From the UHGV virus genome UHGV-1710001: a stretch of 45,026 nt of DNA. The stretch is one strand, 5' to 3'. Every line of letters begins with the position of its first letter. The stretch's first letter is position 1. The position numbers were made by a program, and so were the translations under genes. Origin of the DNA: a virus. The notes beneath the pieces are model-generated. The model saw only the letters and a program-made list of their open reading frames with translations. It did not search any database and was not told where the DNA came from. Positions 6,573 through 34,390 of the stretch are shown piece by piece.

Positions 6573-6589
6573 ATTGCTCTAATGTATTG
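6573..6589 (+). promoter_or_regulatory. C1 repressor operator upstream of lpa
   Basis: ATTGCTCTAATGTATTG, 14/17 match to the recalled C1 operator ATTGCTCTAATAAATTT. Confidence 0.6.
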
Positions 6590-7197: not shown

Positions 7198-8391
7198 GTG
7201 ACCTGGGACGATCACAAGAAGAATTTTGCTCGCCTGGCGCGAGATGGTGGTTACACCATCGCACAGTATGCCGCCGAGTTTAATCTTAACCCTAATACTG
7301 CACGTCGTTATCTCCGTGCCTTCAAAGAAGACACCAGGACAGCGGACAGCCGCAAGCCAAATAAGCCAGTCAGGAAGCCACTAAAAAGCATGATCATTGA
7401 TCACTCTAATGATCAACATGCAGGTGATCACATTGCGGCTGAAATAGCGGAAAAACAAAGGGTTAATGCCGTTGTCAGTGCCGCAGTCGAGAACGCTAAG
7501 CGCCAAAATAAGCGCATAAATGATCGTTCTGATGATCATGACGTGATCATCCGCGCCCACCGTACCTTACGTGATCGCCTGGAACGCGACACCCTGGATG
7601 ATGATGGTGAACGCTTTGAATTCGAAGCTGGCGATTACCTGATAGATAACGTTGAAGCGCGGAAGGCCGCGCGCGCTATGTTGCGTCGGTCCGGGGCCGA
7701 TGTTCTGGAAACCACTCTTCTGGAAAAGTCTCTTTCTCATCTCCTTATGCTGGAGAACGCCAGGGATACGTGTATTCGCCTGGTGCAGGAAATGCGCGAT
7801 CAGCAAAAAGACGATGATGAAGGTACTCCGCCTGAATACCGTATCGCGAGCATGCTAAACAGCTGTTCCGCGCAGATAAGCAGCCTGATCAACACCATTT
7901 ACAGCATCCGGAATAACTATCGAAAAGAAAGCCGGGAGGCGGAAAAGCACGCTTTGTCTATGGGGCAAGCTGGCATTGTTAAGCTGGCATACGAACGAAA
8001 GCGTGAAAATAACTGGTCAGTGCTGGAAGCAGCTGAATTCATCGAGGCGCATGGCGGGAAAGTGCCGCCCCTGATGCTGGAGCAAATCAAAGCCGATCTG
8101 CGTGCTCCTAAGACCAATACCGATGATGAGGAAAGGCAAACTGCCGTCGGTGGCCCTTCTCTTGAAGATCTGGACAAAGTTGCGCGAGAACGGGCCGCCA
8201 ACCGCCGCGCCGATGCCGCATTGTGGATTGAGCAACGTAGGGAAGAAATCGCCGATATCGTTGATACAGGCGGTTATGGAGATGTTGATACTGAAGGTGT
8301 ATCAAACGACCCATGGCTGGAACAAGACCTGGACGAAGACGAGGAGGAAGACGAAGAAGTTACCCGCAAGCTATACGGGGATGATGATTAA
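7198..8391 (+). CDS. pacA: terminase small subunit PacA
   Basis: 397-aa ORF with GTG start, N-terminal HTH-like segment, acidic C-terminus; contains the pac site; size matches recalled P1 PacA. Confidence 0.8.
7391..7549. promoter_or_regulatory. pac packaging site with hexanucleotide repeats containing Dam GATC sites
   Basis: Four TGATCA hexamers at about 7391, 7398, 7410 and 7425 and three TGATC(A/G) at about 7521, 7533 and 7544, separated by about 90 bp; matches the 4+3 architecture of P1 pac. Confidence 0.75.
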
Positions 8392-9875
8392 TGGCCAGAA
8401 GTTGCGTAACGGATCCACGTTGGCGCGAGCTGGTGGCGCTATATCGTTATGACTGGATTGCGGCCGCTGATGTTTTGTTCGGCAAAACACCTACCTGGCA
8501 GCAGGATCTGATTATTGAGTCTGTGCAGGAACAGGGTAGCAAGACATCTGTTTCGTCTGGTCACGGTACCGGGAAATCAGACATGACTTCTATCATGATC
8601 ATGTTGTTCATAATCATGTATCCCGGTGCCCGCGCCATTATCGTTGCGAACAAAATTCAGCAGGTAATGACCGGTATATTCAAGTACATCAAGATAAACT
8701 GGGCTACTGCCACCAGCCGTTTTCCATGGCTTGCTGATTATTTTGTTCTGACAGAAACCGCTTTCTATGAGGTTACTGGTAAAGGTGTATGGACTGTAGT
8801 ACCGAAGGGCTTTCGTCTGGGAAGTGAAGAAGCTCTCGCCGGTGAACACGCAGATCATCTTCTGTATATTATCGATGAAGCCTCCGGTGTCAGTGATAGA
8901 GCTTTCGGTATCATCACCGGTGCTCTTACCGGACAGGATAACCGCATCTTATTACTGTCACAGCCTACACGCCCAAGCGGCTATTTCTACGATACTCACC
9001 ATAAACTGGCCAAGCGTCCTGGTAACCCAGATGGCGTTTATACGGCGATCACGCTTAACAGTGAGGAATCACCGCTGGTAACGCCAGAATTTATCAAAAT
9101 GAAGCTGGCGGAGTACGGCGGGCGTGATAACCCTATGTACATGATTAAGGTACGCGGGCTATTCCCTAAATCACAGGACGGCTTCCTTCTTGGACGTGAT
9201 GAGGTTGAACGTGCGACGCGGCGGAAAGTCAAGATTGCCAAAGGATGGGGCTGGCTTGCATGTGTGGACGTTGCTGGTGGTACAGGACGGGATAAGTCCG
9301 TTATCAATATCATGATGGTGTCCGGCCAGCGAAATAAACGCCGTGTAATCAACTATCGAATGCTGGAATACACAGACGTTACAGAAACGCAGCTTGCCGC
9401 CAAAATTTTCGCAGAATGTAATCCTGAGCGATTCCCCAATATCACCATAGCGATAGACGGCGATGGCCTGGGTAAAGCAACGGCGGATCTGATGTACGAG
9501 TATTATGGTATTACCGTACAGCGTATACGCTGGGGTAAAAAGATGCATAGCCGTGAAGATAAGAGCCTGTACTTTGATAAACGTGCTTATGCCAATGTTC
9601 AAGCCGCAGAGGCCGTAAAATCTGGTCGTATGAGACTGGATAAGGGTAATGAAACTATTGAGGAAGCGTCGAAAATCCCTGTAGGGATTAACTCCGCAGG
9701 TCAATGGAAGGTGATGAGTAAGGAGGATATGAAGAAAAAACTCAACCTGCACTCACCAGACCATTGGGATACATATTGTTTCGCTATGCTGGCGGATTAT
9801 GTTCCCCAGGATGAAGTGCTTAGCGTCGAAGACGAAGCGCAGGTTGATGAAGCTCTGGCATGGCTTAATGAATGA
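8391..9875 (+). CDS. pacB: terminase large subunit PacB
   Basis: 494-aa ORF overlapping the pacA stop; Walker A SGHGTGKS, Walker [11 protein letters not shown]. Confidence 0.8.
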
Positions 9876-9878
9876 ATA

Positions 9879-9895
9879 TTTGCTCTAATAAATTG
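9879..9895 (+). promoter_or_regulatory. C1 operator-like site just after pacB
   Basis: TTTGCTCTAATAAATTG, 15/17 match to the C1 operator; positioned to control the downstream structured-RNA/ant unit. Confidence 0.5.
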
Positions 9896-10026
9896 TGTTT
9901 TTTAGCTACCGATGCTACATTGAACCTGACCTCTTGCGCCTTGTGGCATTTTCGGTTTATGCTTATCAGGCACCTCATTAAAACGGGTGCCGGGATTGAG
10001 ACCCCGGATAATGCAAAAGGCGACAC

Positions 10027-10049
10027 AGACGCCAAAAGCGTCTTTTTTT
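10027..10049 (+). terminator. intrinsic terminator-like hairpin plus T-run
   Basis: AGACGC-CAAAA-GCGTCT stem-loop followed by TTTTTTT. Confidence 0.45.
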
Positions 10050-10084
10050 GTGTCATGCCATCGCACAGCCATACGTAGCGTTTA

Positions 10085-10210
10085 GCTCAGAGATCAATGG
10101 TAGTGCTGGCTGGGCTGCCGAAAGGCAGGCCGGTTCCCTTTTGCGCCGGTAGTCTCAACCCAGTCAGTGCTACCGCCATTGAGATTGAGACCTCACGCGG
10201 TAGCTCCTTA
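10085..10210 (+). ncRNA. structured RNA region, candidate c4-like antisense RNA and target
   Basis: Extended imperfect inverted repeats (TCAATGGTAGTGCTGGCTGGG at about 10094-10114 against CCCAGTCAGTGCTACCGCCATTGA at about 10159-10182) and a GAAA-capped hairpin CTGCC-GAAA-GGCAG, directly upstream of a small ORF coupled to ant. Confidence 0.3.
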
Positions 10211-10234
10211 AATTAGCAAAAGGAGGCTGCCATT

Positions 10235-10456
10235 GTGGCTACTATCCCTACCCCTGCTCATCCTGAATTTATCTGGCGCTTTTACTCCTGCCAAAAACGT
10301 CACTATCACTTCGTTATTGCACCGACAGAAGATGAGGCACGTTCTCAGCTTCCTGACGCCCCATGTATTTTCTCTGCCCGTTTTTCCACTGATTCACACA
10401 ATTCTCTCAGTTACTGGTGCCTCCCTGTTAACGCTTCTGCTCTGGAGGGGCTATGA
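10235..10456 (+). CDS. small ORF translationally coupled to ant (icd-like position)
   Basis: 73-aa ORF with GTG start after AAAAGGAGG; its stop overlaps the ant ATG (ATGA). An alternative overlapping 81-aa hydrophobic ORF at 10233..10478 cannot be excluded. Confidence 0.35.
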   Translation: MATIPTPAHPEFIWRFYSCQKRHYHFVIAPTEDEARSQLPDAPCIFSARFSTDSHNSLSYWCLPVNASALEGL

Positions 10457-11568
10457 GAACATCATTAGTCACCCGTAAAGAAATGATCGAGGCAATTGAA
10501 CAGCACACTGCCTGTATCAGTACCAGGGATATACCTGGCGTTATTGCCAACTACTTCATGATCACCAAACAACTTTACCGGAGAAAGGACAAAAACGCGG
10601 TTCACCGCATTCTGCTAACCGATATCCGTGAATACCTGCTCGAACAGGGTCATCTGAATTACGCAACCGTCGCAGCCGAAGCACGCAAGGAGGCACACAG
10701 AATGAAAGCAACTAACGTTAAATCAGAAAAAACTCATGCACCTTCAGTTCAGGAATCGGAGCTGGTGGTTGTTCAGAATCAGTCTGATGAAATTCCCGTT
10801 CTGGAATGGCTGGGAGTGCGTGTAGTGACAACTAAGATCCTTGCTAAGGGGTATGGGACAGATGCGGATAACATCAAGAAGAACTTTTCCCGTAATGCTG
10901 AACGTTTTTGTGAAGGCAAGCATTTCTATAAAGTTATTGGAGATGATTTGAACAATTTGCGGGTGACTTTAAGTAACTCACAAAATCCTATCTCTCCTAA
11001 AGCCCGCTCACTCATCCTCTGGACGGAACGCGGCGCAGCCCGCCACGCTAAAATGATCGAAACCGATCAGGCATGGGCATTCTTTGAAAAACTGGAAGAC
11101 AGCTACTTCCGACAAAAAGAACAGCAACCGATCGCAATCCCCCAGACGCTTCCAGAAGCTCTGCGCCTTGCTGCCGAACTGGCTGAACAAAAGCAACTTC
11201 TGGAACAGAAAGCCCATCAGCTAAATCAGCAGCTGGTGGCCGCAGCCCCCAAAGTCGATTTTGCCGACCGGGTATCAGTGGCTAAGGGGATCCTGATTGG
11301 GAATTTTGCAAAGGTCGTTGGACTTAAACAAAATGCGCTGTTTGCCTGGTTACGGGAGAACGGCATTCTGATAGCGTCCGGCGGCCGTAAAAATGTACCG
11401 TTCCAGCAGTACATAAACGCCGGATATTTCACAGTGAAAGAAGTGGTGCTGGATGATGAAGAGGGCTACCAGATACGGCTGACGCCCCAATTAACGGGGA
11501 AAGGCCAACAGTGGTTGACGCGTAAACTGCTCGATGCTGGCTTGTTAAAACCGGTGGCGGCTGAATAA
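10453..11568 (+). CDS. phage antirepressor (Ant-like, AntA/ORF6N-type N-domain plus KilA-C-type C-domain)
   Basis: 371-aa ORF; segments VLEWLGVRVVTTKILAKGYGTDADNIKKNFSRNAERFCEGKHFYKV and FADRVSVAKGILIGNFAKVVGLKQNALFAWLRENGIL resemble antirepressor domains. Confidence 0.6.
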   Translation: MRTSLVTRKEMIEAIEQHTACISTRDIPGVIANYFMITKQLYRRKDKNAVHRILLTDIREYLLEQGHLNYATVAAEARKEAHRMKATNVKSEKTHAPSVQESELVVVQNQSDEIPVLEWLGVRVVTTKILAKGYGTDADNIKKNFSRNAERFCEGKHFYKVIGDDLNNLRVTLSNSQNPISPKARSLILWTERGAARHAKMIETDQAWAFFEKLEDSYFRQKEQQPIAIPQTLPEALRLAAELAEQKQLLEQKAHQLNQQLVAAAPKVDFADRVSVAKGILIGNFAKVVGLKQNALFAWLRENGILIASGGRKNVPFQQYINAGYFTVKEVVLDDEEGYQIRLTPQLTGKGQQWLTRKLLDAGLLKPVAAE

Positions 11569-11600
11569 TGGAAGAATGCCCGGTTGATGCCGGGCATAAT

Positions 11601-12452
11601 TTATTGCGCGCTTTCGGGGTTGTCGTTTACTGGCTGCCCCTTCTTGGTTTTACGGCTGCGCGTAACTGATGCGGCTGACTTAACCTTTTTCTCTTCGCGA
11701 GTGATGGCAATTTGTTTTTTTACATTTTCAATATCTGCCAGGCGATATATTTTTGCTTGTGGCCAGCGGTCGCAGATGATCGGTTCTATGGAGTCATAAA
11801 GGCTAAATTTTGCTTTTTCGAATTCACCGTTGATGATGATTCCATCACGGAGAGTTTCATCGCAGATAAACACGCCACACAGCGGTACATGGTAACTAAC
11901 TGATTTACCATCATTGTAGTTAGGGCTACTGGAGATGTAGTGGACGCGCAGCATTGTTTCGCTAAAGCCGTGTACGCGCATACGGAATTTTTCATCCTCC
12001 GGGTACTGCTTCATTAGCTCTTTTGTTGCTTCCAGGTTCTCTATGTATTTCGCACTGTGCTCATTGATCCCCGCGCTTTTTTGGATGCGAATGTCCTTAT
12101 CAATCAGATGAATAATGCGGCCAGCGGTCATGTTGACGCTGTTCACAGCTTCTGTCTGATAAGTTGTAACCTTGCGCACACCGCGAAGGATGTTAGGCAC
12201 TGGATATAAAATAGTCTTTGGGATATTGAGGTCTGGGTACTGTTCCAGTTCCCGCGCCATTAAAGTCCATTTATCAATTTCAGCCTGAATGCTGTCAGTT
12301 TCTTTGAACGGTAGAACGACAACCGGGCGTACAGGACGACCGTCGCTGGCTGTATCAACGTGTTGGGCGCGTGCAACAGCTTTTTTTAGAAAGAGATCCC
12401 TGAAGCTGACGAACTCCTGGTACAGTTGTTCGCCGTAGACATAATTTATCAT
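11601..12452 (-). CDS. c1: C1 repressor of lysis
   Basis: 283-aa product MINYVYGEQLYQEFVSFRDLFLKKAVARAQHVD... matches recalled P1 C1 in sequence and length. Confidence 0.9.
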   Translation of the reverse strand: MINYVYGEQLYQEFVSFRDLFLKKAVARAQHVDTASDGRPVRPVVVLPFKETDSIQAEIDKWTLMARELEQYPDLNIPKTILYPVPNILRGVRKVTTYQTEAVNSVNMTAGRIIHLIDKDIRIQKSAGINEHSAKYIENLEATKELMKQYPEDEKFRMRVHGFSETMLRVHYISSSPNYNDGKSVSYHVPLCGVFICDETLRDGIIINGEFEKAKFSLYDSIEPIICDRWPQAKIYRLADIENVKKQIAITREEKKVKSAASVTRSRKTKKGQPVNDNPESAQ

Positions 12453-12546
12453 TGATCCTCCTCCAGAATTGACATGGTCAATAACGCCCGGCTGAGAAAA
12501 CCGGTCATTACTGACCTATATTATAGAGGGATCAAACAAAAATAAT

Positions 12547-12563
12547 AGATTTATTAGTGCATT
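12547..12563 (-). promoter_or_regulatory. C1 operator-like site between coi and c1
   Basis: Reverse complement AATGCACTAATAAATCT, about 14/17 match to the operator consensus. Confidence 0.35.
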
Positions 12564-12772
12564 TATTGTGAGTCTAACTGGTTAGTTGCCATGAGATATT
12601 CGATTGTGTCAGTGAGGTCATCCAGGTCGTCTTGGGTGATGCGGTACTCCTGATTGGATATCTTTGAGTAGTGTTCAGCAATGGCGCGGGCAGCGTCGGT
12701 TTCGGCAGGGTCTACAGATAAAGCGTTAGAGCAATGTCTAACGTCGTCGATGGTTGGTTGAATGAAAGCCAT
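12563..12772 (-). CDS. coi: Coi, C1 inactivator
   Basis: 69-aa product MAFIQPTIDDVRHCSNALSVDPAETDAARAIAEHYSK... directly upstream of c1 on the same strand, as in P1 immC. Confidence 0.8.
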   Translation of the reverse strand: MAFIQPTIDDVRHCSNALSVDPAETDAARAIAEHYSKISNQEYRITQDDLDDLTDTIEYLMATNQLDSQ

Positions 12773-13010
12773 AATTATGCCTCACTGTATTGACAACACA
12801 GAGCCTGAAGCTCTGACCTACTGTTTCACCCATGATCCATGCTGGGGTAATCTAACAACATTGCGCTGTGTGTAAGATGAGCAATGCATAGCTGTAATGC
12901 CGTTGTATAAGGTTTCCCTGTTTGCTCATTTCCTTCTGAGCCGCTCTACAACGCTGAAGACACATTAAATAGTGAATCCAAAGTCGTATTACGTAACGGC
13001 GGCAAAACTA

Positions 13011-13027
13011 TAATTTATTAGAGCAAT
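13011..13027 (-). promoter_or_regulatory. C1 operator (Op99-type) upstream of coi/c1
   Basis: Reverse complement ATTGCTCTAATAAATTA, 16/17 match. Confidence 0.65.
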
Positions 13028-13093
13028 TGTCAAACAACTATGAAAAACAATCCAGTTTTTAGCTGGTGGAGTGGGATTTTTCTCTCAAAATTT

Positions 13094-13110
13094 ATTGCTC
13101 TAATAATTAT
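13094..13110 (+). promoter_or_regulatory. C1 operator (Op99-type) upstream of coi/c1
   Basis: ATTGCTCTAATAATTAT, 14-15/17 match; 36 bp from the transposon left inverted repeat. Confidence 0.6.
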
Positions 13111-13334: not shown

Positions 13335-14912
13335 TTATCCTCGTTTTTCCCAAAACTGTTTTGCCAGTTCGCTCAGAGCGCTAGTTAACTGAGCGACAGA
13401 TTTCGCACTTTGCAAATTATTCTGCCCGGTCTGTACATTGGTATCAGCAGCATCGCGTATATTGATAATACTGCGGTTTATGTCTTCACTTACTGCTCCC
13501 TGCTGCTCGACCGCAGTCGCTATTTGCGCGTTCATGTCGGTAATTTCGTTAACGCGTTGGCCAATTCCATCAAGAGCTGTAGCTGCTTCCTCTGCGTGAG
13601 CTACACTCGTGTGCGCTTGCCGACTACTTTGCTCCATGACTGTAACAGCGGATTGCGCTCGCTCTTGTAGAGCGCTGATCATGCTTTGAATATCCGTTGT
13701 CGATTGCTGTGTGCGAGCAGCAAGACTGCGAACCTCATCGGCGACAACAGCAAAACCACGCCCCTGCTCACCAGCACGCGCGGCCTCAATTGCTGCGTTG
13801 AGTGCCAACAAATTCGTTTGCTCGGCGATCCCTCGTATAACGTCAAGAACTTTTGATATCTCGTTACTTTGACCTTCAAGCTCATGAATAACCTGAGTGG
13901 CTTGCCTAATTTCACCTTCAAGGGCAGTGATTGACTGGCTTGTGTGGGCTACCAGACGCTGGCCAGATGCCGTCTCAGTGTCTGCTCTTCCGGCCGCATC
14001 TGCAGCATGCTGTGCATTGCTCGCAACCTCTTGAATGCTTGCCACCATTTGGTTTACTGCCGTTGCTATTTGATCTGTCTCTGCCTGCTGCTCAACTGTA
14101 AGTACATTGCTTGACTCAATATCCTTTAGTAGGCCTCGGGTGTGTTCGCTAAGCCGATTTGATGCATCACCTATGCGACCTACTATGGCGCCTGTTTCAG
14201 CTTGCATCATTCGTAAAGCAAACTCTATTTGGCCAAACTCATCGGTGCGCCCAGTGTAGAGGGATTGACTTAATGGGTTATTGGAAATATTCCTGGCTCT
14301 TTCAACCAGTCTTCCAAGAGGAGAGAGAATAGCCAAAACACTAACAGAGCTTAAGCTTCCTGACATTAAAGTGGCTAACAATAAGCTGCTTATTGATGTA
14401 TCAGTAAGCATGCCGGCAGCCATTGCGCTTGATATAATACTACCCCATATGAGCAAGAGTATTTTCACGGAAAAGCTAGCAGCCAATTTCGGCCTCGCGG
14501 CCTTCCCGCTTCTCAATTGAGCATATAATTTTTCCGCAGCCAAAACCTGCTCAGGTTCAGGCTTGGTCCTTACAGACTGGTATTCAACAATCGAACCATT
14601 CTTAGCTATTGGCGTTACATAAGCACTTACCCAATAGTGGTCGCCATTTTTACAGCGATTTTTTACTAGCCCCATCCATGAGCGGCCAGATTTTAATGTA
14701 CTCCACATATGCTCAAATGCAGCAGGCGGCATATCTGGGTGTCTTACGATGTTGTGAGGCTGGCCTAATAGTTCTTCCTCAGTGAAACCACTGATTTTAA
14801 TGAAGTCAGGATTAACGTACGTGATATGGCTTTGAGGGGAGGTAGTCGAAAGAATATTGGCATCTTTTGGGAGTTCTAAGTTTCGACCCGTCACTGGTAA
14901 ATTCTGGCGCAT
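13335..14912 (-). CDS. methyl-accepting chemotaxis protein-like protein (transposon passenger)
   Basis: 525-aa ORF with N-terminal PAS-like region, hydrophobic segment and C-terminal MCP signalling domain ([31 protein letters not shown]); matches the known MCP-like ORF of Tn1721. Confidence 0.8.
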
Positions 14913-15059
14913 AAGAACCTCAAGGGTTGGCTGTTTTATTTTATTGTTTTCGGCATTAAGCCCAATTTCTTGAGCGTTACGATAAAGCTAGCATGGAAAC
15001 GATAGGTGCAAGCAAGTTAAGGGTTGCATCGCGCATGTCAATCTAGGCTATACCCTAAC

Positions 15060-15200
15060 TTGATGTCAGGCAGGGCCGCGCCGCTTCGTCAGAATAGAGT
15101 CTGCTTTCCCATTTTTTGACACATGCCCGCGAAGGTTATAGATTTCAGCCTGACAGAAATGGGCTTTGAGGCACAACGGAACAGAAAGTGCACTTAAGCC
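15060..15200. promoter_or_regulatory. res resolution site region
   Basis: Between the mcp-like gene and tnpR; contains inverted TGTCAGGC / GCCTGACA motifs typical of resolvase binding subsites. Boundaries approximate. Confidence 0.45.
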
Positions 15201-15221
15201 GCCTTCAACCAAGGAGACATC

Positions 15222-15782
15222 GTGCAGGGGCACCGCATCGGCTACGTCCGGGTCAGCAGCTTTGACCAGAACCCGGAACGCCAGCTGGAACAAACCCAGG
15301 TGAGCAAGGTGTTCACCGACAAGGCATCGGGCAAGGACACCCAGCGCCCCCAGCTCGAAGCGCTGCTGAGCTTCGTCCGCGAAGGCGATACAGTGGTGGT
15401 GCACAGCATGGATCGGCTGGCCCGCAACCTCGATGACCTGCGTCGCTTGGTACAGAAGCTGACTCAGCGCGGCGTGCGCATCGAGTTCCTGAAGGAGGGC
15501 CTGGTGTTCACTGGCGAGGACTCGCCGATGGCCAACCTGATGCTGTCGGTGATGGGGGCCTTCGCTGAGTTCGAGCGCGCCCTGATCCGCGAGCGGCAGC
15601 GTGAGGGCATCGCCTTGGCCAAGCAGCGTGGCGCGTACCGGGGCCGCAAGAAAGCCCTGTCCGATGAGCAGGCTGCTACCCTGCGGCAGCGAGCGACGGC
15701 CGGCGAGCCCAAGGCGCAGCTTGCCCGCGAGTTCAACATCAGCCGGGAAACCCTCTACCAGTACCTCCGCACGGACGACTGA
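15222..15782 (+). CDS. tnpR: serine recombinase resolvase TnpR
   Basis: 186-aa ORF with GTG start after AAGGAGA; N-terminal catalytic motif GYVRVSSFDQN and C-terminal HTH, typical Tn21/Tn1721 resolvase. Confidence 0.9.
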   Translation: MQGHRIGYVRVSSFDQNPERQLEQTQVSKVFTDKASGKDTQRPQLEALLSFVREGDTVVVHSMDRLARNLDDLRRLVQKLTQRGVRIEFLKEGLVFTGEDSPMANLMLSVMGAFAEFERALIRERQREGIALAKQRGAYRGRKKALSDEQAATLRQRATAGEPKAQLAREFNISRETLYQYLRTDD

Positions 15783-15785
15783 CAC

Positions 15786-18752
15786 ATGCCGCGTCGCTTG
15801 ATCCTCTCGGCCACGGAGCGGGACACCCTGCTTGCGCTGCCGGAAAGCCAGGATGACCTGATCCGCTACTACACCTTCAACGACTCCGACCTGTCGCTGA
15901 TCCGCCAGCGACGCGGCGACGCCAACCGCCTCGGCTTCGCCGTGCAGCTCTGCCTGCTGCGCTACCCCGGTTACGCGCTGGGAACCGACAGCGAGCTGCC
16001 CGAGCCGGTCATCCTGTGGGTGGCGAAGCAAGTCCAGGCCGAGCCGGCGAGCTGGGCAAAGTACGGCGAGCGCGACGTGACCCGTCGCGAGCATGCCCAG
16101 GAACTGCGCACCTACCTGCAACTGGCCCCGTTCGGCCTGTCCGACTTCCGCGCCCTGGTGCGCGAGCTAACCGAGCTGGCCCAGCAGACCGACAAAGGCT
16201 TGCTGCTGGCCGGTCAGGCCCTGGAGAGCCTACGGCAGAAACGACGCATCCTGCCGGCGCTGAGCGTGATTGACCGGGCCTGCTCGGAAGCCATTGCGCG
16301 AGCCAATCGGCGGGTCTACCGCGCCCTGGTCGAACCACTCACGGACTCGCATCGGGCCAAGCTGGACGAGCTGTTGAAGCTCAAGGCCGGCAGCAGCATC
16401 ACCTGGTTGACCTGGCTGCGCCAGGCACCGCTGAAACCCAACTCTCGGCACATGCTGGAACACATCGAGCGGCTGAAGACATTTCAGTTGGTGGACTTGC
16501 CCGAAGGCCTGGGCCGGCACATCCACCAGAACCGCCTGCTCAAGCTGGCCCGCGAGGGTGGGCAGATGACGCCCAAAGACCTCGGTAAGTTCGAGCCGCA
16601 GCGCCGCTACGCGACCCTGGCCGCCGTGGTGCTGGAGAGCACCGCGACCGTGATCGATGAGCTGGTCGATCTGCATGACCGCATCCTGGTCAAGCTGTTC
16701 AGCGGCGCGAAGCACAAGCATCAGCAGCAGTTCCAGAAGCAGGGCAAGGCGATCAACGACAAGGTGCGCCTGTACTCCAGGATCGGCCAGGCGCTGCTGG
16801 AAGCGAAGGAAAGCGGCAGCGACCCCTATGCCGCCATCGAGGCGGTGATTCCCTGGGACGAGTTCACCGAGAGCGTCAGCGAGGCCGAGCTGCTGGCCCG
16901 GCCGGAAGGCTTCGACCACCTGCACCTGGTCGGCGAGAACTTCGCCACCCTGCGCCGTTACACGCCGGCCTTGCTGGAGGTGCTGGAACTGCGCGCCGCG
17001 CCGGCCGCGCAAGGCGTGCTGGCAGCCGTGCAGACCCTGCGTGAGATGAACGCCGACAACCTGCGCAAGGTGCCGGCCGATGCACCCACGGCCTTCATCA
17101 AGCCGCGCTGGAAGCCGCTGGTGATCACCCCGGAAGGCCTCGACCGGAAATTCTACGAAATCTGCGCCCTGTCCGAGCTGAAGAACGCCCTGCGCTCCGG
17201 CGACATCTGGGTCAAGGGCTCGCGGCAGTTCCGCGACTTCGACGACTACCTGCTGCCGGCCGAGAAGTTCGCCGCACTCAAGCGCGAGCAGGCCCTGCCC
17301 CTGGCGATCAACCCGAACAGCGACCAGTACCTGGAAGAGCGTTTGCAGCTGCTGGACGAGCAGTTGGCCACCGTCACCCGCCTGGCCAAGGACAACGAGC
17401 TGCCCGATGCCATCCTCACCGAGTCAGGGCTGAAAATCACCCCGCTGGATGCGGCGGTGCCGGATCGGGCGCAGGCGCTGATCGACCAAACCAGCCAGTT
17501 ACTGCCGCGCATCAAGATCACCGAACTGCTGATGGACGTGGACGACTGGACGGGCTTCAGCCGCCACTTCACCCACTTGAAGGACGGGGCCGAGGCCAAA
17601 GACAGGACGTTGCTGCTGTCCGCAATCCTCGGTGATGCGATCAACCTCGGGCTGACCAAGATGGCCGAGTCGAGCCCCGGCCTGACCTACGCCAAGCTGT
17701 CCTGGCTGCAAGCCTGGCACATCCGCGACGAAACCTATTCGGCGGCCTTGGCCGAGCTGGTCAACCACCAGTATCGCCACGCCTTTGCCGCCCACTGGGG
17801 CGACGGCACGACCTCATCCTCCGATGGCCAGCGCTTCCGCGCGGGTGGCCGGGGCGAGAGCACCGGGCACGTCAACCCGAAGTACGGTAGCGAGCCGGGA
17901 CGGCTGTTCTATACCCATATCTCCGACCAGTACGCGCCGTTCAGCACCCGCGTGGTGAATGTCGGCGTCCGCGATTCCACCTATGTGCTCGACGGCCTGC
18001 TGTACCACGAGTCCGACCTGCGGATCGAGGAGCACTACACCGACACGGCCGGCTTCACCGATCACGTCTTTGCCCTGATGCACCTGCTAGGCTTCCGCTT
18101 CGCGCCGCGCATCCGCGACCTCGGCGAAACCAAGCTGTACGTGCCGCAGGGCGTGCAAGCCTACCCGACGTTGCGCCCGCTGATCGGCGGCACCCTGAAC
18201 ATCAAGCACGTGCGTGCCCACTGGGACGACATCCTGCGCCTGGCCAGCTCGATCAAGCAGGGCACCGTCACCGCCTCGCTGATGCTGCGCAAGCTCGGCA
18301 GCTACCCGCGCCAGAACGGACTGGCCGTGGCCCTGCGCGAGCTGGGCCGGATCGAGCGCACGCTGTTCATCCTGGACTGGCTGCAAAGTGTTGAACTGCG
18401 CCGCCGCGTGCATGCCGGCCTGAACAAAGGTGAGGCGCGCAACTCGCTGGCCAGGGCGGTGTTCTTCAACCGCCTTGGGGAAATCAGGGATCGGAGCTTC
18501 GAGCAGCAGCGCTACCGGGCCAGCGGCCTCAACCTGGTGACGGCGGCTATCGTGCTGTGGAACACGGTGTACCTGGAACGCGCCACCCAGGGGTTGGTCG
18601 AGGCCGGCAAGCCGGTGGACGGCGAGCTGCTGCAATTCCTGTCGCCGCTGGGCTGGGAGCACATCAACCTAACCGGCGATTACGTCTGGCGGCAGAGCCG
18701 CAGACTGGAAGACGGGAAGTTTCGGCCCTTACGGATGCCCGGAAAACCTTAG
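15786..18752 (+). CDS. tnpA: Tn3-family transposase TnpA
   Basis: 988-aa ORF, the length of Tn21-subgroup transposases, ending inside the right inverted repeat. Confidence 0.9.
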
Positions 18753-19250: not shown

Positions 19251-20282
19251 ATGTCCAATTTACTGACCGTACACCAAAATTTGCCTGCATTACCGGTCGA
19301 TGCAACGAGTGATGAGGTTCGCAAGAACCTGATGGACATGTTCAGGGATCGCCAGGCGTTTTCTGAGCATACCTGGAAAATGCTTCTGTCCGTTTGCCGG
19401 TCGTGGGCGGCATGGTGCAAGTTGAATAACCGGAAATGGTTTCCCGCAGAACCTGAAGATGTTCGCGATTATCTTCTATATCTTCAGGCGCGCGGTCTGG
19501 CAGTAAAAACTATCCAGCAACATTTGGGCCAGCTAAACATGCTTCATCGTCGGTCCGGGCTGCCACGACCAAGTGACAGCAATGCTGTTTCACTGGTTAT
19601 GCGGCGGATTCGAAAAGAAAACGTTGATGCCGGTGAACGTGCAAAACAGGCATTGGCGTTCGAACGCACTGATTTCGACCAGGTTCGTTCACTCATGGAA
19701 AATAGCGATCGCTGCCAGGATATACGGAATCTGGCATTTCTGGGGATTGCTTATAACACCCTGTTACGTATAGCCGAAATTGCCAGGATCAGGGTTAAAG
19801 ATATCTCACGTACTGACGGTGGGAGAATGTTAATCCATATTGGCAGAACGAAAACGCTGGTTAGCACCGCAGGTGTAGAGAAGGCACTTAGCCTGGGGGT
19901 AACTAAACTGGTCGAGCGATGGATTTCTGTCTCTGGTGTGGCTGATGATCCGAATAACTACCTGTTTTGCCGTGTCAGAAAAAATGGTGTTGCCGCGCCA
20001 TCTGCCACCAGCCAGCTATCAACTCGCGCTCTGGAAGGGATTTTTGAAGCAACTCATCGATTGATTTACGGCGCTAAGGATGACTCTGGGCAGAGATACC
20101 TGGCCTGGTCTGGACACAGTGCCCGTGTCGGAGCCGCGCGAGATATGGCCCGCGCCGGAGTTTCAATACCGGAGATCATGCAAGCTGGTGGCTGGACCAA
20201 CGTAAATATTGTCATGAACTATATCCGTAACCTGGATAGTGAAACAGGGGCAATGGTGCGCCTGCTGGAAGATGGCGATTAG
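19251..20282 (+). CDS. cre: Cre tyrosine site-specific recombinase
   Basis: 343-aa product beginning MSNLLTVHQNLPALPVDATSDEVRKNLMDMFRDRQAFSEHTWKMLLSVCRSWAAWCKLNNRKWFPAEPEDVRDYLLYLQARGLAVKTIQQHLGQLNMLHRRSGLPRPSDSNAVSLVMRRIRKENVDAGERAK..., as recalled for P1 Cre; adjacent loxP. Confidence 0.97.
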   Translation: MSNLLTVHQNLPALPVDATSDEVRKNLMDMFRDRQAFSEHTWKMLLSVCRSWAAWCKLNNRKWFPAEPEDVRDYLLYLQARGLAVKTIQQHLGQLNMLHRRSGLPRPSDSNAVSLVMRRIRKENVDAGERAKQALAFERTDFDQVRSLMENSDRCQDIRNLAFLGIAYNTLLRIAEIARIRVKDISRTDGGRMLIHIGRTKTLVSTAGVEKALSLGVTKLVERWISVSGVADDPNNYLFCRVRKNGVAAPSATSQLSTRALEGIFEATHRLIYGAKDDSGQRYLAWSGHSARVGAARDMARAGVSIPEIMQAGGWTNVNIVMNYIRNLDSETGAMVRLLEDGD

Positions 20283-20332: not shown

Positions 20333-20644
20333 ATGAGAAAGGATTTCAACATCGACGGAAAATATGTAGTGCTGTCTGTAAGCACTAATATTCAGTCGCC
20401 AGCCGTCATTGTCACCGTAAAGTTGAGCGATAGGATGCCTGATATCGACTCGATATCTGTTGCGTTCCCCGTTAAAAGCATGCGGAGTGCTGAACATTTT
20501 GTGATGAATGCAACGGAGGAGGAAGCGCGGCGCGGGCTTACTAGAGTGATGGGGGAATTTGGCGAACTCCTGGGTAAGGTAAACAATGCCCTTTCAATCA
20601 GTTCAGCAAGGTCCAAAGCGTTAACAGCTTCCATGATGAAATAA
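20333..20644 (+). CDS. hypothetical protein (103 aa) between cre and ref
   Basis: ORF following an operator-like site; no motif recognised; overlapped by an antisense ORF that I reject. Confidence 0.4.
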   Translation: MRKDFNIDGKYVVLSVSTNIQSPAVIVTVKLSDRMPDIDSISVAFPVKSMRSAEHFVMNATEEEARRGLTRVMGEFGELLGKVNNALSISSARSKALTASMMK

Positions 20645-20792: not shown

Positions 20793-20878
20793 CGCAGTTT
20801 TTGTCAACTACGAAGACGTTGCCATTACTTCACTCCTTGACATCATTGGCGGCCATTAGGCCGCCTTTTTTTTGCCAT

Positions 20879-21439
20879 ATGAAAACAATCGAACAAAAAC
20901 TTGAACAGCGCCGCGAGTGGCAGAAGGCAGCCAGAGAACGAGCGATCGCTCGGCAACGGAAAAAGTTGGCTGACCCCGCCTGGCGAGAATCGCAATATCA
21001 GAAAATGCGGGATTCTATCGACCGACGTATCGCTAAACAGAAAGAGCGCCCACCAGCCAGCAAAACGCGGAAAAGTGCGGTAAAAATAAAATCTCGTGGC
21101 TTGAAGGGGCGAACACCGACGGCGGAGGAACGGACCATCGCCAATGCTCTTGGCACTCTCCCCTGCATTGCCTGCTACATGCATGGAGTAATATCTGAAG
21201 AGGTGTCTCTGCACCATATCTCCGGTCGTACCGCGCCGGGTTGTCACAAAAAGCAATTGCCCCTTTGTAGATGGCACCACCAGCATGCTGCACCGGCTGA
21301 AGTAAGAGCAAAATACCCCTGGCTGGTCCCTGTTCATGCCGATGGTGTGGTTGGAGGCAAGAAAGAATTCACCTTGCTGAACAAGTCAGAGATGGAGTTA
21401 CTGGCTGACGCCTATGAGATGGCAAACATCATGCACTAA
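20879..21439 (+). CDS. ref: Ref, HNH-type recombination enhancement endonuclease
   Basis: 186-aa product from ATG 20879; the 20801 start in the ORF track lies upstream of the operator; HNH-like core SLHHISGRTAPGCHKKQLPLCRWHH; size matches P1 Ref. Confidence 0.75.
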   Translation: MKTIEQKLEQRREWQKAARERAIARQRKKLADPAWRESQYQKMRDSIDRRIAKQKERPPASKTRKSAVKIKSRGLKGRTPTAEERTIANALGTLPCIACYMHGVISEEVSLHHISGRTAPGCHKKQLPLCRWHHQHAAPAEVRAKYPWLVPVHADGVVGGKKEFTLLNKSEMELLADAYEMANIMH

Positions 21440-23879: not shown

Positions 23880-26800
23880 TTATGCGTATTGTTGGATGAC
23901 GGCCAGAACGTCCGCCACGTTGTGTTTTGTCTCGATAATCCACCAGTTACCTGGGAAGTCGCTGTTCTTCGCCTTCGCTGGCAACCAGCGAGCGCCGAAT
24001 TTCGCCTTGATTGCGTCTTTCGCACGGAAAAGAACCCCTTTCATGCCGGAGGCTTCCTGAAGTCCAAATACCTCGCCAGCGGCGAATTTTGGTGCGTACA
24101 TCATCTTCAGGTCGGCGGTGGATACGCGATAATTCAGACCAAGAGACTGAGCTATGCTGGTGGCATCACCCTGTATTGATGATAACTCTTCTTGTTTCTC
24201 GTTTCTGGCGGCAATTTCTTCCTCCGTGATGTTGCCAAGGGCCAGGTTTATCCGATCAGCGTCTGCCTGTTTCTCTTCATCGGTGCGCCCGGCAAGTACC
24301 GTGTTAATTCTGTGCAATATCTCCACATGATTCTTGCGCATGCTGAGCAATTCCGGCGTAACCTCGTTAAGGTCCACCAGCCCAAGGATGGCAAGGTCGG
24401 TAAACATTGATACCAGGTTGTAGGTCATGCGATAGCTGAGTTGCCCATAGGCTGATGGCAACTGCACCGCATCCATTTGATAGGCATCCATAAATTTAGA
24501 GCCGTCGTTTACGACATCCGCAATTGCCGGTGTGATTTTCCCTGTGGTGGCGGCCTCCCTGATTGCTGTTACCCACGATTGAGTCAGCGCGGCGACTGCA
24601 TGATTCAGATTGGCTTTCCGTTCTGCTGCAATGCGCGCGCTTGCTGCGTCCATTGTCTGCTTGATCTCGTCTTTATTGCTGTAAATGCCAATGGTGCCAA
24701 ACTGTGCTGTGGTGATCTCATAATCTGACGCCCGGAACTCATTGGTACCGAAAATGGCATTGGTGACTTCAAGTTCAGAATCCCCGTTACGAGTAGCCCC
24801 CTGGCTTGTTTTTTCCGGCATTCTGGCGATCGCATCCGCTATTTTCTCCTGAATTGCTTCAGGGGATAGCGTATCTCCGTATGACGCGATTACATCGCCA
24901 TAATTGGAGCCAAACAGTTCAACCAGGAATGTTTCTGCCGAACGGATCTGGCGGTTATTCCCTTCCGACATCATACCAAGCACCCATTTTGCAATTGACG
25001 ACTTCAGCGCGCCGTCACGGCGATCCGGGTAAACCGCATGCTTCAGTGGGTCCGTATAGGTACCAACAAAATCAATGCTATAGCCTGACTCTGTAGTCTG
25101 AACGCCGTATGAGTCAGTGATTTTGATCATGCCGCGCTGCTGGAAACGGTAGAAATCGTCACAGGAAACGATGTCGTTAATCCCGGCGATGGAGACGCCA
25201 CCACTGATTTTCTGCATAACAGCATCTTCATCGGGAGTTACATCAACCTGTTTATCCAGCGTCTTCACATCCCAGTTACCCGATTTGGTGCCTTTGAAGG
25301 TAAAGATGATCTCCACGTCTGCGCGCTGGCTGTCGAAGTCCAGCGACTTAATGCGAACGATATCACCGGCACAATCATAGTATTGGCCTACACGCCATGA
25401 GCGATCGCCGATAACAAGGAACTCATTCGCATGGTTAACCAGATCAGGATCAACATCCAGAATGCCTTTATTTATTGCATCCTCCACCAGCGGGCGCAGG
25501 CGTTTGATATCCGTCGCGGCCTTCTGAGTACGGTTCAATAATTTCTCATAGCGGGAGATGGCCTGAGAGATATTAGCCTTGCGCTGAATGGCGCTTTTCA
25601 ACGACGCGCGATACTGTGCTAACAACATACGGTCTGTGTGATGGACGCTACCCCAGCGGGCTTTCCAGTCTGCGTTATCAGCTGCTTTGGCCATTACCGC
25701 CTGTTTGAATTTGGCGACGTCGGCGGTGGTCTTTTCAAGTTCCGCTTTGCTTCGCTCCAATTCAGCGGTAAGTACCTCCACATCCTCACCAGCTGCGTGC
25801 TGCGCCTTGATGTAGTTCTGAAGGTCGATAGTAGCCTGTTCTTTCTGGCGAGCGCGTTTCGCAGCTTTCGCCTTATCCATTTGAACCTGCATCATTGCCA
25901 GACGTTCGCCGTCATCCTTCGCGGTATACATCTGCATTTCGATCATATCGTTGGCGTCGGCGTTCTCCATTTCTGACTTATCTGAACGGAGGATATCGGA
26001 GATCCAGCCTGCTTTACGCTTCAGCGTCTTCAGTCGGTATTCATCGAAAGACCCCTTGCCGCAGTAGTAGTGAACGCGAATGCTTGCACGGTTGGAGCCA
26101 ACTCGGGCACCGCGACCGTTTCGTTGCGCAATACTGGCTGGAGTCCATGGCAACGTCAGATGATGGATGTCAGTCGTTCCTCGATGCAGGTTGATACCCA
26201 CCTCTGCCTTTTTGTTGCAGATGATGATCGGAGTCCGGCCCTCCTGGAAGTCGGCTGCAATCTTTTCCAGACCGCCCAACGACATTTCATTTTGCTGCGC
26301 GATATAGGCGTCATACAGAGCCATTTGCTCGTTGTATTTCGCTATCTGTGCATCTGTTGGTTCATCCGGTAACTCTTTCGGCGGTTTAACCGCTTTCAGT
26401 TTCTTACCGGTTTTACCTGCCTCGGCAACCGTCTGAGCATTCAGTATCCCCACCTTTGAAGGTTCAAGGTTAAGAGCATTGCAGATAATGCGCTTGAGCT
26501 TCTGGTGCTGCGTTTTTTCATCGGTGAAGATGATTTGCTTACCTTCCGGGAAAAACTCCTTCAGCGTGGCAATCAGCTTCGCGTATTTGGGCGTAACGGG
26601 GTGAGTTACGGTCTGTTCGTCAATGCCAAACCTGGCCAGGCGCTTATTCACTTCCTGCTCGAACGCTTCCGGAACCTGCAACTGAATAAACTCGCCCTTA
26701 TCTATCAGGGAGTATTGCGATTGCTGCGTGATTGAATCATCACTGTCGTCGTCTTCACTGGTGGCTTGTTTAGGCAAACTGTCCGCCAGCTGCTGCACCG

Positions 26801-29800
26801 CATCGGCGTACTCCGGCAGGAAACGATAGGTGATCCGGCGATAGTACAGGTCCATGTCAGTACATACGCGGTCCATATCCCTGATTATTGAGAAGATCGG
26901 ACGGGCTTTCTCGTGCTCAATCACGCCGTCTTCATTGACCGAGGTCGTTACGCCATTGTTGGCTTTGGCCGCCGCTTCCGCCTGCTGGCGCAATTCTTCA
27001 TACGCCGCCAGTTGTTCTTCAGTAAGTGGTGCATCCTGCTGGTGTTCGTCCAGCTCCGGGATCTCCACGGTATCCTTAACGTCTTCCGCCGTTTTAAGCG
27101 TTACCCAGCGATGGAATATACCGCGCAGCGCATCAAGGTTTTCAAAGCCCACCAGCGCCATTTTTTCTTCAACTTCACCGCTAATTTTCTGTACCGTTTC
27201 CAGCCTGGTCTTGCCGAAGAATTTAACGAAGTCATCAGGACCGTAGATCCCCATGTTCTGCCAGTATTCCTTCGGCAGAACATGAGAAAGCATGTTGTAT
27301 GCATCGATCGGGGTGTTAACGACTGGCGTTGCAGTCAGGAGAACCGGCCCGCGCCCACCATTCTTTTTCATCAGGTACGCGTTTTTAATTGCCATATCTC
27401 GCGCCGATTGCGCCACCGCGCTGGTGGGCAGATAGGCCAGTTGTGACGCTTCGCGACCATTTTTATAGCTATTGCGGTAGTTGTGACCTTCGTCAGCGAT
27501 CACACTATCGAAGCCCATATCCTCAAAGTACGGATACTTCTCTGCTTTTACGGTGCCGGTATCTGAATACTCCGACAATACCCGGCGACGCGCGGCCTCT
27601 TTGCGGTGGGAGTCGGAGTCCATTGCGCTGGCTACGCGTCCGGCGGCAACGAAGTCATAAAGCATATCCTGTGCATGCTCATCTACGGTGTCATCACGTA
27701 GCGGAATGCGGGCGTATTGTTCTTTGGTAAACACGACTGCACGGTAATTTGAGTGCGGGATCGCGTTCATCCGCGCCGTGATAGTGGCTTCATCTGCCAG
27801 CTTAAGAGCATCGCGCATAACTGGAGTGCCATCAGTACCAAGAACAGGTTTACCGTTCTCATCGAGCACCTGCACCTGGCGAATCTGATCGCCATCCATC
27901 AGCACATCAAGACCGACGAACAGGTAGTTACTGAATGCCTCTTCACTCAGGAATTCTTTTGCTTCGTAATACCAGTTTTCCAGCACTGATTTAGGCACTA
28001 CATACGCAGTACGGGTGGAGCGACCGTTCTCATAGTTGAACGCCTCAAGCGCCAGCGCGGTCGTGGTTTTACCCAGCCCGGTGCCGAAGCCCAGGATGCC
28101 GCGCCCATCTTCGGACAGTCGGCGCACCTCGCTATTCTGGTAATCAAATGGCTGGCGCTTACCGCTTAATCCCTTCAACCCAAGCGGATCGCCAGAGTGT
28201 TCATACGGGATATTGCTATTGAACACATCGTTGTATTTGGCAACCAGCTCATCGTAGCGATCGTGCGTCTTGATCCACTTATTGAACTGGTCCTCAAGCA
28301 GTGCCATCTGCTCGCGGTAGCCGTTCGCCGTCGCGCTATCTTTGCCACCGATACGCGCACCATTGAGATACTTTTCCAGCTGTGCCGGGAACCCGGTCGC
28401 GTTTTCACCTGATTTACGGTCCCACTCGTAGCGAATCTCACCTGTTTCTTTATCCTTGCGCTGGACGACACCGTATCGGTGCCCGACGAACAGACCATCA
28501 CCACCGTGATAGGTGTCAGAAACCATTTCGTCGCCTTCCAGCTGCACTGACTGCACATAGCGCAGATCCGGATAGCCGTTTTCCTGCAAAAATTCCAGAA
28601 TGACGGAACGGTCGAACCAACGGCTATTGAGCTTAAACCGGATATTCTCTGCTGGCGTCTTGATGCGCTTCTCTTCGATAGCTGCCATCTGATTAAGGAC
28701 GTTGTTCTTTACTGGACCGTCGGGGAGTGTGGCGAGGAATTCCTGTTTTGGAGCCACTATCTCGTTAATGTCGCCGCTGGTGGCGCGGGCGAACGGAACA
28801 ATCCCGCCATACGGTGAAACCGCAATACCAGGGGTGCTGGCCAATAAATTAAGCAACTCTTCATCACTGGCTGGCAGTTCGCCGGTAAACGCAAGGCGGA
28901 AATCATCGAGCTGGATTGGATCGCGGGTGAGATCGCTATAGAGATAACGCAGGGTGTCCTGATAGCTGGTGGAGTCATAACTTGCGCTGGAATCATGCGT
29001 AACCAGCTTCCCTGTCAGCTCGTCAGAAATAGTGCCATCCAGCTTAATTGCACCACGGAAAGCAAACCAGGCGCGCGCACCGCTCCCCGACAATTTCGCT
29101 ATCGGACCGCGACCGGGGTTACCAAAACGGTCAATCTCTGCCTGCAAACGGGATACCAGAGAAAGGCGCTGCTGTTCGATTTGTTCAGCACTATGCCCGG
29201 CGGCCTTCATATCCTGATATTCAATTAACATCCGGCCAATCATCGCCCCGCGATACAAGCGTTCACGGTATTTTTCAGGCTGGCTGTTAATCCAGTCCAC
29301 CAGCTGCACCATATCGTCGCTGATTGATGTGGTGTACTTATCGCGGACATTTGCCATCTGGGTAAATGTCATACCGAGACGGCCTTCTGTTGTAGTCAGG
29401 TTACGCTGAAGAGCCTCCCAGCTATCCGCGCCATAACTGGCAGCATCGATCTTAAGTTCCTTCCCGGCATCAGCTTCAATCCAGCGACCACCAGCATATT
29501 TTTGCCATACGCCATTAATCAGGCGCATTTCCCCTTCACCAACAACGTCTGCGGTCGGTGACGGTTCAGCCATATCGAGCAAAGACCAGTCGATACGGCT
29601 TTCGAAACGATGAATCAGCTTCGCTTTAAGAGCCTGGTTATCAATCTGACCGTCGGCACGAACCTCAATACGCCCCTGGAAGCCCTTTTCCTGGGTGCCA
29701 TGAACAAACCGGCGGCCATCCTTTTCAAACCACTTGCCAGAAATAAACGTTGGCCAAAGCACATTTGCCGATTCAAGAGTGCTTTCATCCACCAAGGGGA

Positions 29801-34293: not shown

Positions 34294-34390
34294 AAAGACC
34301 TCATAAGCGAATTTTTTACGCTCCAGGACAAACACTCATTCACAGCCAATACCGACTGACTCGATCCCTTTAGAAGGCACAGGATAATGC

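Follow-up and report, generated by a model that had tools for sequence, protein, structure and literature searches.

A predicted second immI-type anti-immunity operon between pacB and c1 of P1-like phage-plasmids

The immI operons of phages P1 and P7 have the same order of parts as the locus analysed here, a 1725-bp insert at positions 9876-11600 of a 45,026-nt stretch of UHGV virus genome UHGV-1710001 (this whole stretch is the window, to which all window coordinates refer). The window originates from a P1-like phage-plasmid, and the insert stands in place of the 24-bp pacB/c1 spacer of phage P1. In P1 and P7, the operator Op51 and the promoters P51a and P51b are followed by the sites a1 and b1, the antisense RNA gene c4, the sites a2 and b2, icd and ant1/ant2, and this operon lies between sim and kilA-repL rather than at pacB/c1. 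According to the annotation of the P1 record, the a' and b' segments of C4 pair with the upstream a1/b1 as well as with a2/b2, and b2 lies over the icd ribosome-binding site, as it does in the insert. RNase P releases C4 from its precursor in P1, where transcription also terminates early when icd is untranslated. P1 and P7 form a heteroimmune pair.

Related loci are found in other phages. The immI locus of D6 (c4-icd-ant) lies in a different genomic context, and its ant product is a Phage_pRha/winged-helix protein instead of a P1-type Ant. Shiga toxin (Stx)-converting and other lambdoid phages carry the same isrK-C4 cassette as the insert upstream of Rha or antirepressor genes, at 67-70% identity and with a covarying a/b code of their own, but these are integrated phages whose cassettes lack a C1 operator and icd and serve other effector proteins. 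The isrK-orf45-anrP locus of Gifsy-1 in Salmonella resembles the insert in having an IsrK-type leader with a terminator, then a C4 homologue and then an ORF6N antirepressor (AnrP); it differs in that icd is missing, AnrP lacks KilAC and the repressor is lambdoid and not C1. For Gifsy-1, partial read-through of the IsrK terminator has been measured, IsrK supplied in trans raises antirepressor translation ∼140-fold, and the leader RNA has been shown experimentally to pair with the a' region and thereby to switch on the antirepressor through a coupled upstream open reading frame (ORF) (PMC4825925). The paper concerned mentions neither P1 nor C4 (Hershko-Shalev et al. 2016, PMC4825925), and a 2025 review lists IsrK and C4 RNAs separately, linking IsrK to neither C4 nor P1.

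Comparison with these systems makes it likely that 9876-11600 is a complete and probably functional immI-type anti-immunity operon, which occurs as a frequent accessory locus between pacB and c1 of P1-like phage-plasmids. As read from its sequence, the module appears to be a second, specificity-distinct immI-type operon beside immC.

Organisation of the insert

The first 50 bp of the insert align with the start of P1 immI and contain a site resembling the operators of the C1 repressor (Table 1). The homologous operator of P1/P7 immI likewise overlaps the -35 element of the first promoter. A scan of the window returned six operator-like sites with three or fewer mismatches against 0.15 expected, and none of 100 shuffled sequences reached six. 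Both promoters of the insert are predicted from positional homology, the distal one through alignment with the annotated P1 promoter. Measured from the first leader hairpin, the proximal promoter, with a predicted start near 9970, is in register with the P1c4/P51b promoter of P1 and the promoters of D6, an Stx phage and Gifsy-1 (PisrK), among which PisrK has been mapped experimentally (Hershko-Shalev et al. 2016, PMC4825925).

The promoters are followed by an IsrK-type leader (RF01394) that ends in a strong intrinsic terminator, whereas the leader of P1 and P7 is of the c4-a1b1 type (RF03163). The RF01394 match is complete, covering model positions 1-77 with the terminator included. The C4 RNA encoded next has the same structure, as defined by Rfam, as its counterparts in P1 and P7, and its minimum free energy fold (-46.4 kcal/mol, z = -5.6) was matched in stability by none of 200 shuffles. 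A hairpin in the leader 3' of C4 that would hide the Shine-Dalgarno sequence was no better than those of shuffled sequences (z = -0.4) and was not used.

The Icd-like protein is 78% identical to P1 Icd over residues 10-73, and the TGA of its gene overlaps the ATG of ant as ATGA at 10453-10456, by which icd is predicted to be translationally coupled to ant. A GTG start distinguishes this icd from that of P1; the same codon is used in five of the 26 other leaders of the alignment described below, the remaining leaders having ATG at this position.

The ant product combines a central ORF6N domain (residues 117-201, E = 4e-18, Pfam) with a C-terminal KilAC/ANT domain (PF03374, residues 259-360, E = 5e-31, 107.7 bits), while P1 Ant1 has KilAC only, without ORF6N. 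Judged by eye from the alignment with P1 Ant1, residues 1-85 are ∼65-70% and residues 228-369 ∼90% identical. The internal start (AAGGAGGCACAcAGA followed by ATG) is near-identical to the annotated ant2 start of P1 (AAGGAGGCACAtAGA followed by ATG), the two having in common the context AAGGAGGCACAxAGA before the ATG, and an Ant2-like product is probably made from it. The terminator-like hairpin that closes the insert was picked up by the scan on the plus strand only; its position between the convergent ant and c1 suggests a bidirectional terminator, and transcription of ant toward c1 could disturb c1 expression if it leaks.

Taken part by part, the module is a chimera. Positions 1-50 of the insert are shared only with P1 immI, and D6, which lacks the P1-type operator and the distal promoter, becomes homologous at insert position 51. 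From there, across the proximal promoter, the IsrK-type leader and C4 and into the 5' part of icd, identity to D6 immI is 86-95% (86% over insert positions 51-508 and 95% over 94-421), the leader being closest to that of D6 and not to that of P1. The ends of ant are again P1-like and its centre carries an ORF6N domain, as does Gifsy-1 AnrP. A transposon origin of the insert was considered and rejected. Because neither direct repeats nor inverted ends are visible at the junctions, recombinational replacement is the more likely origin.

A first-pass annotation of the window had likened this interval to P1 immI, naming a C1-operator-like site near 9879, a terminator-like hairpin, a region of extended self-complementarity at about 10085-10210 suspected of encoding an antisense RNA, and a 73-aa ORF whose stop overlaps the ATG of a 371-aa antirepressor-like protein. 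Every one of these elements was found, with coordinates slightly adjusted, and the immI-like logic holds, in that a promoter under predicted C1 control precedes c4, icd and ant at a place other than the canonical immI position. The operator-like site matches 15 of the 17 consensus positions, the self-complementary region is the C4 RNA gene, whose 3' end had been overshot by ∼30 nt and which both the Rfam search and the fold support, and the antirepressor reading agrees with the Pfam domains and the identity to P1 Ant1. The annotation also described P1 correctly as having immI mid-genome and pacB directly before c1: the reference genome of P1 has the pacB end at 93206 and the c1 end at 93231, with 24 bp between them, and immI at 48.1-49.7 kb. 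It had overlooked that the terminator-like hairpin belongs to an IsrK-type leader with a1/b1 copies of the C4 target. Its further suggestions, that the module could rewire lysis-lysogeny control or serve to sense superinfection, are functional hypotheses.

Table 1. Predicted features of the insert and genes around it, in window coordinates
Feature	Position	Strand	Evidence or detail
pacA	7198-8391		
pacB	8391-9875		
C1 repressor operator-like site, TTTGCTCTAATAAATTG	9879-9895	+	15/17 to P1 consensus ATTGCTCTAATAAATTT; aligned with annotated P1 Oc4/Op51
Distal promoter, homologue of P1 P2c4/P51a	9893-9921	+	-35 TTGTGT 9893-9898, 17-nt spacer, -10 TACATT 9916-9921
Proximal promoter, homologue of P1 P1c4/P51b and Gifsy-1 PisrK	9934-9963	+	-35 TTGCGC 9934-9939, 18-nt spacer, -10 TATGCT 9958-9963
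IsrK-type leader RNA, two hairpins	9970-10048	+	Rfam RF01394, 59 bits (gathering score 50)
a1, TTGAGAC	9996-10002	+	Within isrK match
b1, GCAAAAGG	10013-10020	+	Within isrK match
Intrinsic terminator of leader	10027-10043, then seven T	+	3' end of isrK match
C4 antisense RNA gene	10093-10180	+	Rfam RF01695, 75 bits (gathering score 45)
b', CCUUUUGC	10137-10144	+	C4 recognition segment, loop of hairpin 2
a', GUCUCAA	10152-10158	+	C4 recognition segment, single-stranded
a2, TTGAGAC	10185-10191	+	C4 target site in icd leader
b2, GCAAAAGG	10216-10223	+	C4 target site; overlaps icd Shine-Dalgarno AAGGAGG 10220-10226
icd-like gene, 73 aa, GTG start	10235-10456	+	NCBIfam NF033153 phage_ICD_like, 49.8 bits
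ant (Ant1-like, 371 aa)	10453-11568	+	Pfam domains; 54% identical to P1 Ant1, E = 2e-128
Ant2-like in-frame internal product, 288 aa (probable)	10702-11568	+	ATG 10702 after AAGGAGG
Terminator-like hairpin between convergent ant and c1	11576-11597	.	9-bp stem, 6 G-C pairs
c1 (context, outside insert)	11601-12452	-	NCBIfam phage_rep_C1 equivalog, 611.6 bits
coi	12563-12772	-	
cre	19251-20282		
darB-sized ORF	23880-30647		

Pairing code, proposed mechanism and alleles

In the window, a' and b' are exactly complementary to a2 and b2 (7 + 8 perfect pairs). To follow the pairing, 79 related IMG/VR loci, retrieved with an Icd query, were combined with RCS47, 673R5, D6 and an Stx phage, and 27 distinct IsrK-type leaders were aligned. 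All 405 cells of the a'/b' pairing with a2/b2 were paired and nine of the 15 pairs had changed on both sides; none of 500 shuffles performed as well, and slid registers gave 24-54%. Pairing of a'/b' with a1/b1 was also complete (100% of cells), with nine of 15 pairs changed on both sides, as was that of the C4 stems (100%, 11 pairs changed on both sides). The three-way match of a1/b1, a'/b' and a2/b2 is kept in every one of the ∼6 a/b combinations represented. The antisense mechanism of the pacB-c1 module is well supported by this comparative analysis, and we infer the roles of the leader RNA and of the Ant target from Gifsy-1 and from P1 Ant, respectively.

Gifsy-1 (NC_010392; locus 34076-34316, minus strand) has an Rfam C4 homologue at 34131-34214 (69 bits), directly downstream of isrK (34240-34316). 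A transcript start set at 34316 fits all published residues (AUG107, AUG119, C18, G28, G31, C159, C162 and G173), and the compensatory pairs reported in that work, G28-C162 and G31-C159, coincide exactly with a1:a' pairs of the C4 homologue. The a1/b1, a'/b' and a2/b2 segments are arranged as in the insert, with a1 likewise complementary to a'. The coupling ORF is orf45, which overlaps the C4 gene itself, and b2 abuts the anrP Shine-Dalgarno sequence. A processed ∼80-nt RNA of the Salmonella transcriptome, orf45' (STnc1160), agrees with the C4 homologue in size and position. By analogy, the Gifsy-1 data provide the best available experimental support for the window leader RNA as a C4 decoy, and the Salmonella IsrK system is open to reinterpretation as a C4-type circuit.

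The operon would be driven by two promoters, the upstream one overlapped by a C1 operator, if their homology to P51a/Op51 and P51b of P1 extends to activity. As in Gifsy-1, most transcripts would be expected to end at the leader terminator, yielding an ∼80-nt IsrK-type RNA with a1/b1, and read-through transcripts would reach c4-icd-ant, from whose precursor RNase P would cut out C4. The a'/b' segments, for which complementarity and covariation were observed, would pair with a2/b2, cover the icd ribosome-binding site and presumably repress; without translation of icd, ant would not be translated either, through the ATGA coupling. Were C4 absent, non-cognate or titrated by an excess of a1/b1 leader RNA, Icd and the Ant1/Ant2-like proteins would be made. 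Ant would then inactivate C1, as the close likeness of its C-terminus to that of P1 Ant suggests; the c1 product is both the presumed target of Ant and the presumed repressor at the 9879 operator.

Among alleles of the pacB-c1 site, operator and promoter are 92-99% identical, icd is 91-100% identical and the 5' part of ant is conserved. C4 and its targets are exchanged as one unit, and mosaicism is strongest in the middle of ant (72-100% identity, in places only partly alignable). Five a/b codes occur at this site. The segment b' CCUUUUGC is combined with a' GUCUCAA in 18 loci, those of the window, JL22 and pE148-2 among them, and with a' GUUCCAA in 10 loci such as L038; b' CCUUUGAC is combined with a' GUCUCAA in eight loci, including RCS47, and with a' GUUCCAA in four, including L045. 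Since these four codes form 2 × 2 combinations, the a and b halves reassort. The fifth code, b' CCUUGGAC with a' AGGCCAA (28 loci), belongs to the 673R5-type allele, which is divergent, with other stems and a shorter spacer. Modules of the c4-a1b1 type have two a types and five b types, with b' CACUAAC (P1), CACAAUC (P7), CGUAAGU, CAUUCGU or CAUGUAC.

The target code of the insert, TTGAGAC/GCAAAAGG, differs from that of P1 (TTGACAG/GTTAGTGA), that of P7 (TTAGCAG/GATTGTGA) and those of all co-resident modules examined; its distinctness from both P1 and P7 had escaped the first-pass annotation. Full 8/7 pairing was found only in cognate combinations of C4 and target, the window C4 scoring 5/5 against the P1 targets and 3/4 against the P7 targets, compared with 6/6 for the P1-P7 pair. 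The module should therefore be blind to other C4 RNAs, and should give the element a second, independent immunity/anti-immunity specificity. In D6, a', b' and all four target sites are identical to those of the insert, which predicts the same specificity. In each of the six contigs or plasmids with several modules, the b' segment differs between these, and likewise in three IMG/VR sample pairs that lie on separate contigs and whose origin from the same element is not established. A separate case is contig L017, which has the same C4 allele twice (2363 and 3929), 1.57 kb apart with a truncated ant between, either as a tandem partial duplication or as a contig-end assembly artefact.

Several short annotated genes lie over the RNA features. 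A coding sequence (CDS) named 'ash family protein' by the Prokaryotic Genome Annotation Pipeline (PGAP), 39-40 aa in length (window 10097-10216, plus strand; 30367-30486 in locus L007), sits on the C4 gene, starting at the AUGG of the C4 5' stem, and is annotated in pE148-2 and in numerous further plasmids. Its 39-aa translation (10097-10216) had no NCBIfam match, and an RNA gene has probably been taken here for a protein-coding one. In JL22, gp120 and gp121 cover the operator, promoters, IsrK region and an off-frame reading of icd, as do the 'two short hypothetical orfs' reported by Venturini 2019. The 68-aa ORF at 9872-10078, which is gp120 in JL22, matches no family and covers the operator, promoters and IsrK-type RNA; it was treated as non-coding. 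Placing the 'ash family protein' and other short hypothetical ORFs over RNA genes is a recurrent annotation error.

Distribution, further copies and genomic setting

The frequency of the module was surveyed in P1-like plasmids of PLSDB by means of the pacB 3' end and the junction sequences. The pacB 3' end occurs in ∼589 plasmids, with the pacB-to-module junction in 272 and the direct, P1-type pacB/c1 junction in 315. With about half of sequenced P1-like plasmids carrying it, the module is a frequent accessory locus and not core backbone. The first-pass annotation had allowed for the same genes lying at the same position in P1-family genomes as core backbone, of which the first part holds, as they are common at this site, and the second does not; that the insert is far from unusual had been missed.

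The module is also present in RCS47, JL22 and vB_EcoM-673R5, the annotated ant of the last being shortened. The copy in pE148-2 is 99.7% identical to that of the window, and this plasmid also has a canonical c4-icd-ant-kilA-repL locus with a P7-type C4. The insert had been proposed to be either additional or relocated; in pE148-2, with its second, canonical locus, it is additional and has not been relocated.

A third c4-icd-ant module was observed beside cre, in the opposite orientation, in the relatives L081 and L084 (2083-3758), at a site that corresponds to window 20871-21431. It has a leader of the c4-a1b1 type with b' CAUGUAC, and among the relatives that carry it is an 86-kb contig with 99.4% identity to the window over 7735-12953. 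This module is absent from the window, where only a weak 15-aa Icd-like remnant was found (20495-20539, E = 0.05).

The pacB-c1 module of pTZ20_1P and RCS47 is mentioned in one sentence by Venturini 2019 (PMC6906374). Icd-like and KilAC proteins are annotated by PGAP in hundreds of records, and an isrK and C4 pair is already annotated in one Stx-phage record (LC710660). A literature search for earlier functional work on the pacB-c1 module yielded nothing beyond the Venturini sentence, and no account of the site as a complete immI with a separate code was found, though the D6 genome paper (Gilcrease & Casjens 2018) may contain one and may already deal with multiple immI regions or C4 types. The module is built wholly of known parts that are already annotated, and the basic picture of immI is unchanged.

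Elsewhere in the window, further C1 operator-like sites with one to three mismatches lie at 6573, just upstream of an lpa-like ORF, and at 12547, 13011, 13094 and 34427. Those at 12547-13110 probably correspond to the P1 Oc1 operators around c1/coi. Between coi/immC and cre, a Tn3-family, TnAs1-like transposon (13335-18752) encodes a 988-aa transposase (15786-18752) and, as a passenger, a PAS-domain methyl-accepting chemotaxis protein (13335-14912, minus strand). Matches to group II intron domains are found at the 3' end of the window (44187-44456; Rfam group-II-D1D4-3, 96.9 bits, and D1D4-1, 41.6 bits).

Alternative readings and consequences for P1-like phage-plasmids

Some observations count against the view that the insert is a functional, additional immI-type operon directed at C1. 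Both promoters were missed by a sigma-70 consensus scan, each matching 7/12 consensus positions, and the strong intrinsic terminator between the promoters and c4 makes production of C4, Icd and Ant dependent on read-through. The aligned leaders are related, with several alleles present as many near-identical rows and ∼6 distinct a/b combinations overall, so that independent events are fewer than the cell counts suggest. The canonical immI of the window genome lies outside the 45-kb window, and the best PLSDB hit to a 13-kb query covered 97% of it at 97.8% identity. It is in pE148-2 that the module was shown to be additional; the records of RCS47 and JL22 each hold a second matching place, which hints at the same. 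Finally, an ORF6N domain absent from P1 Ant1 makes up the central third of Ant, and C1 may for this reason not be the only target of Ant, or a target at all.

This last point leads to a reading in which C4, the IsrK-type leader and icd regulate as proposed but Ant is aimed at the repressors of other prophages (D6-like, lambdoid or Gifsy-type), or has another role, instead of acting on its own C1, and in which the module would be a means of cross-talk or an induction weapon against unrelated prophages. ORF6N is indeed the domain of Gifsy-1 AnrP, it falls in the part of ant that varies most among alleles, and everything from the proximal promoter to the 5' end of icd is closest to D6 immI and not to P1. 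However, the N-terminal 85 and C-terminal 140 residues of Ant are clearly P1-Ant-like, the ant2 start is conserved, and the operon both adjoins c1 and starts with a C1 operator common only to P1 immI, which leaves a different target unlikely. A mainly defensive role would fit the D6 immI C4, whose a' and b' and the matching a2/b2 are identical to those of the window, and the accumulation in P1-like plasmids of as many as three modules that all differ in code: a constitutive C4 would silence the ant of incoming phages with the same a/b code, D6 for example, and so widen superinfection immunity, with ant as baggage. Defence alone would not maintain icd and ant, however, and almost every locus examined has both genes intact and conserved; in P1, moreover, the two roles are one circuit, and the proposal is a shift of emphasis more than an alternative. 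We regard it as rather unlikely.

It is very improbable that the insert is an inert or decaying recombination scar, that is, a duplicated immI fragment without current function. Such a fragment could account for near-identical P1-like plasmids that differ only in carrying the module, for the 315 empty junctions and for promoters that are weak by consensus. Alignable icd and ant are nevertheless kept in nearly all complete loci (a statement about alignability and not about ORF integrity locus by locus), the ATGA coupling and the ant2 start are conserved, and perfect three-way complementarity through at least six codes requires selection on pairing. The preferred reading is still that of a functional second immI-type operon acting on C1.

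C4/Ant modules number up to three per genome, at the canonical immI, between pacB and c1 and next to cre (window 20871-21431), and the more interesting question is whether several orthogonal modules together make up a combinatorial code for immunity in P1-like plasmids. We suggest, tentatively and as the less probable outcome, that P1-like phage-plasmids may run a combinatorial RNA lock-and-key system of such modules. If so, a newly arriving element would override the immunity of every resident in which at least one of its C4 codes is missing, repression would hold only in residents equipped with the complete set, and diversification would be driven by this requirement. The IsrK-type leader, with a1/b1 placed before the terminator, would then be an RNA decoy that sets the C4 threshold, and Salmonella IsrK/orf45 would be the same circuit, previously unrecognised as such.

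Resistance genes, CTX-M, SHV and mcr among them, have major carriers in the P1-like phage-plasmids, and coexistence, displacement and induction among them depend on their immunity systems. If the module works as predicted, about half of these elements would hold an extra specificity that is independent of the P1 and P7 types, and the 15-nt a/b code would predict cross-immunity between any two elements.

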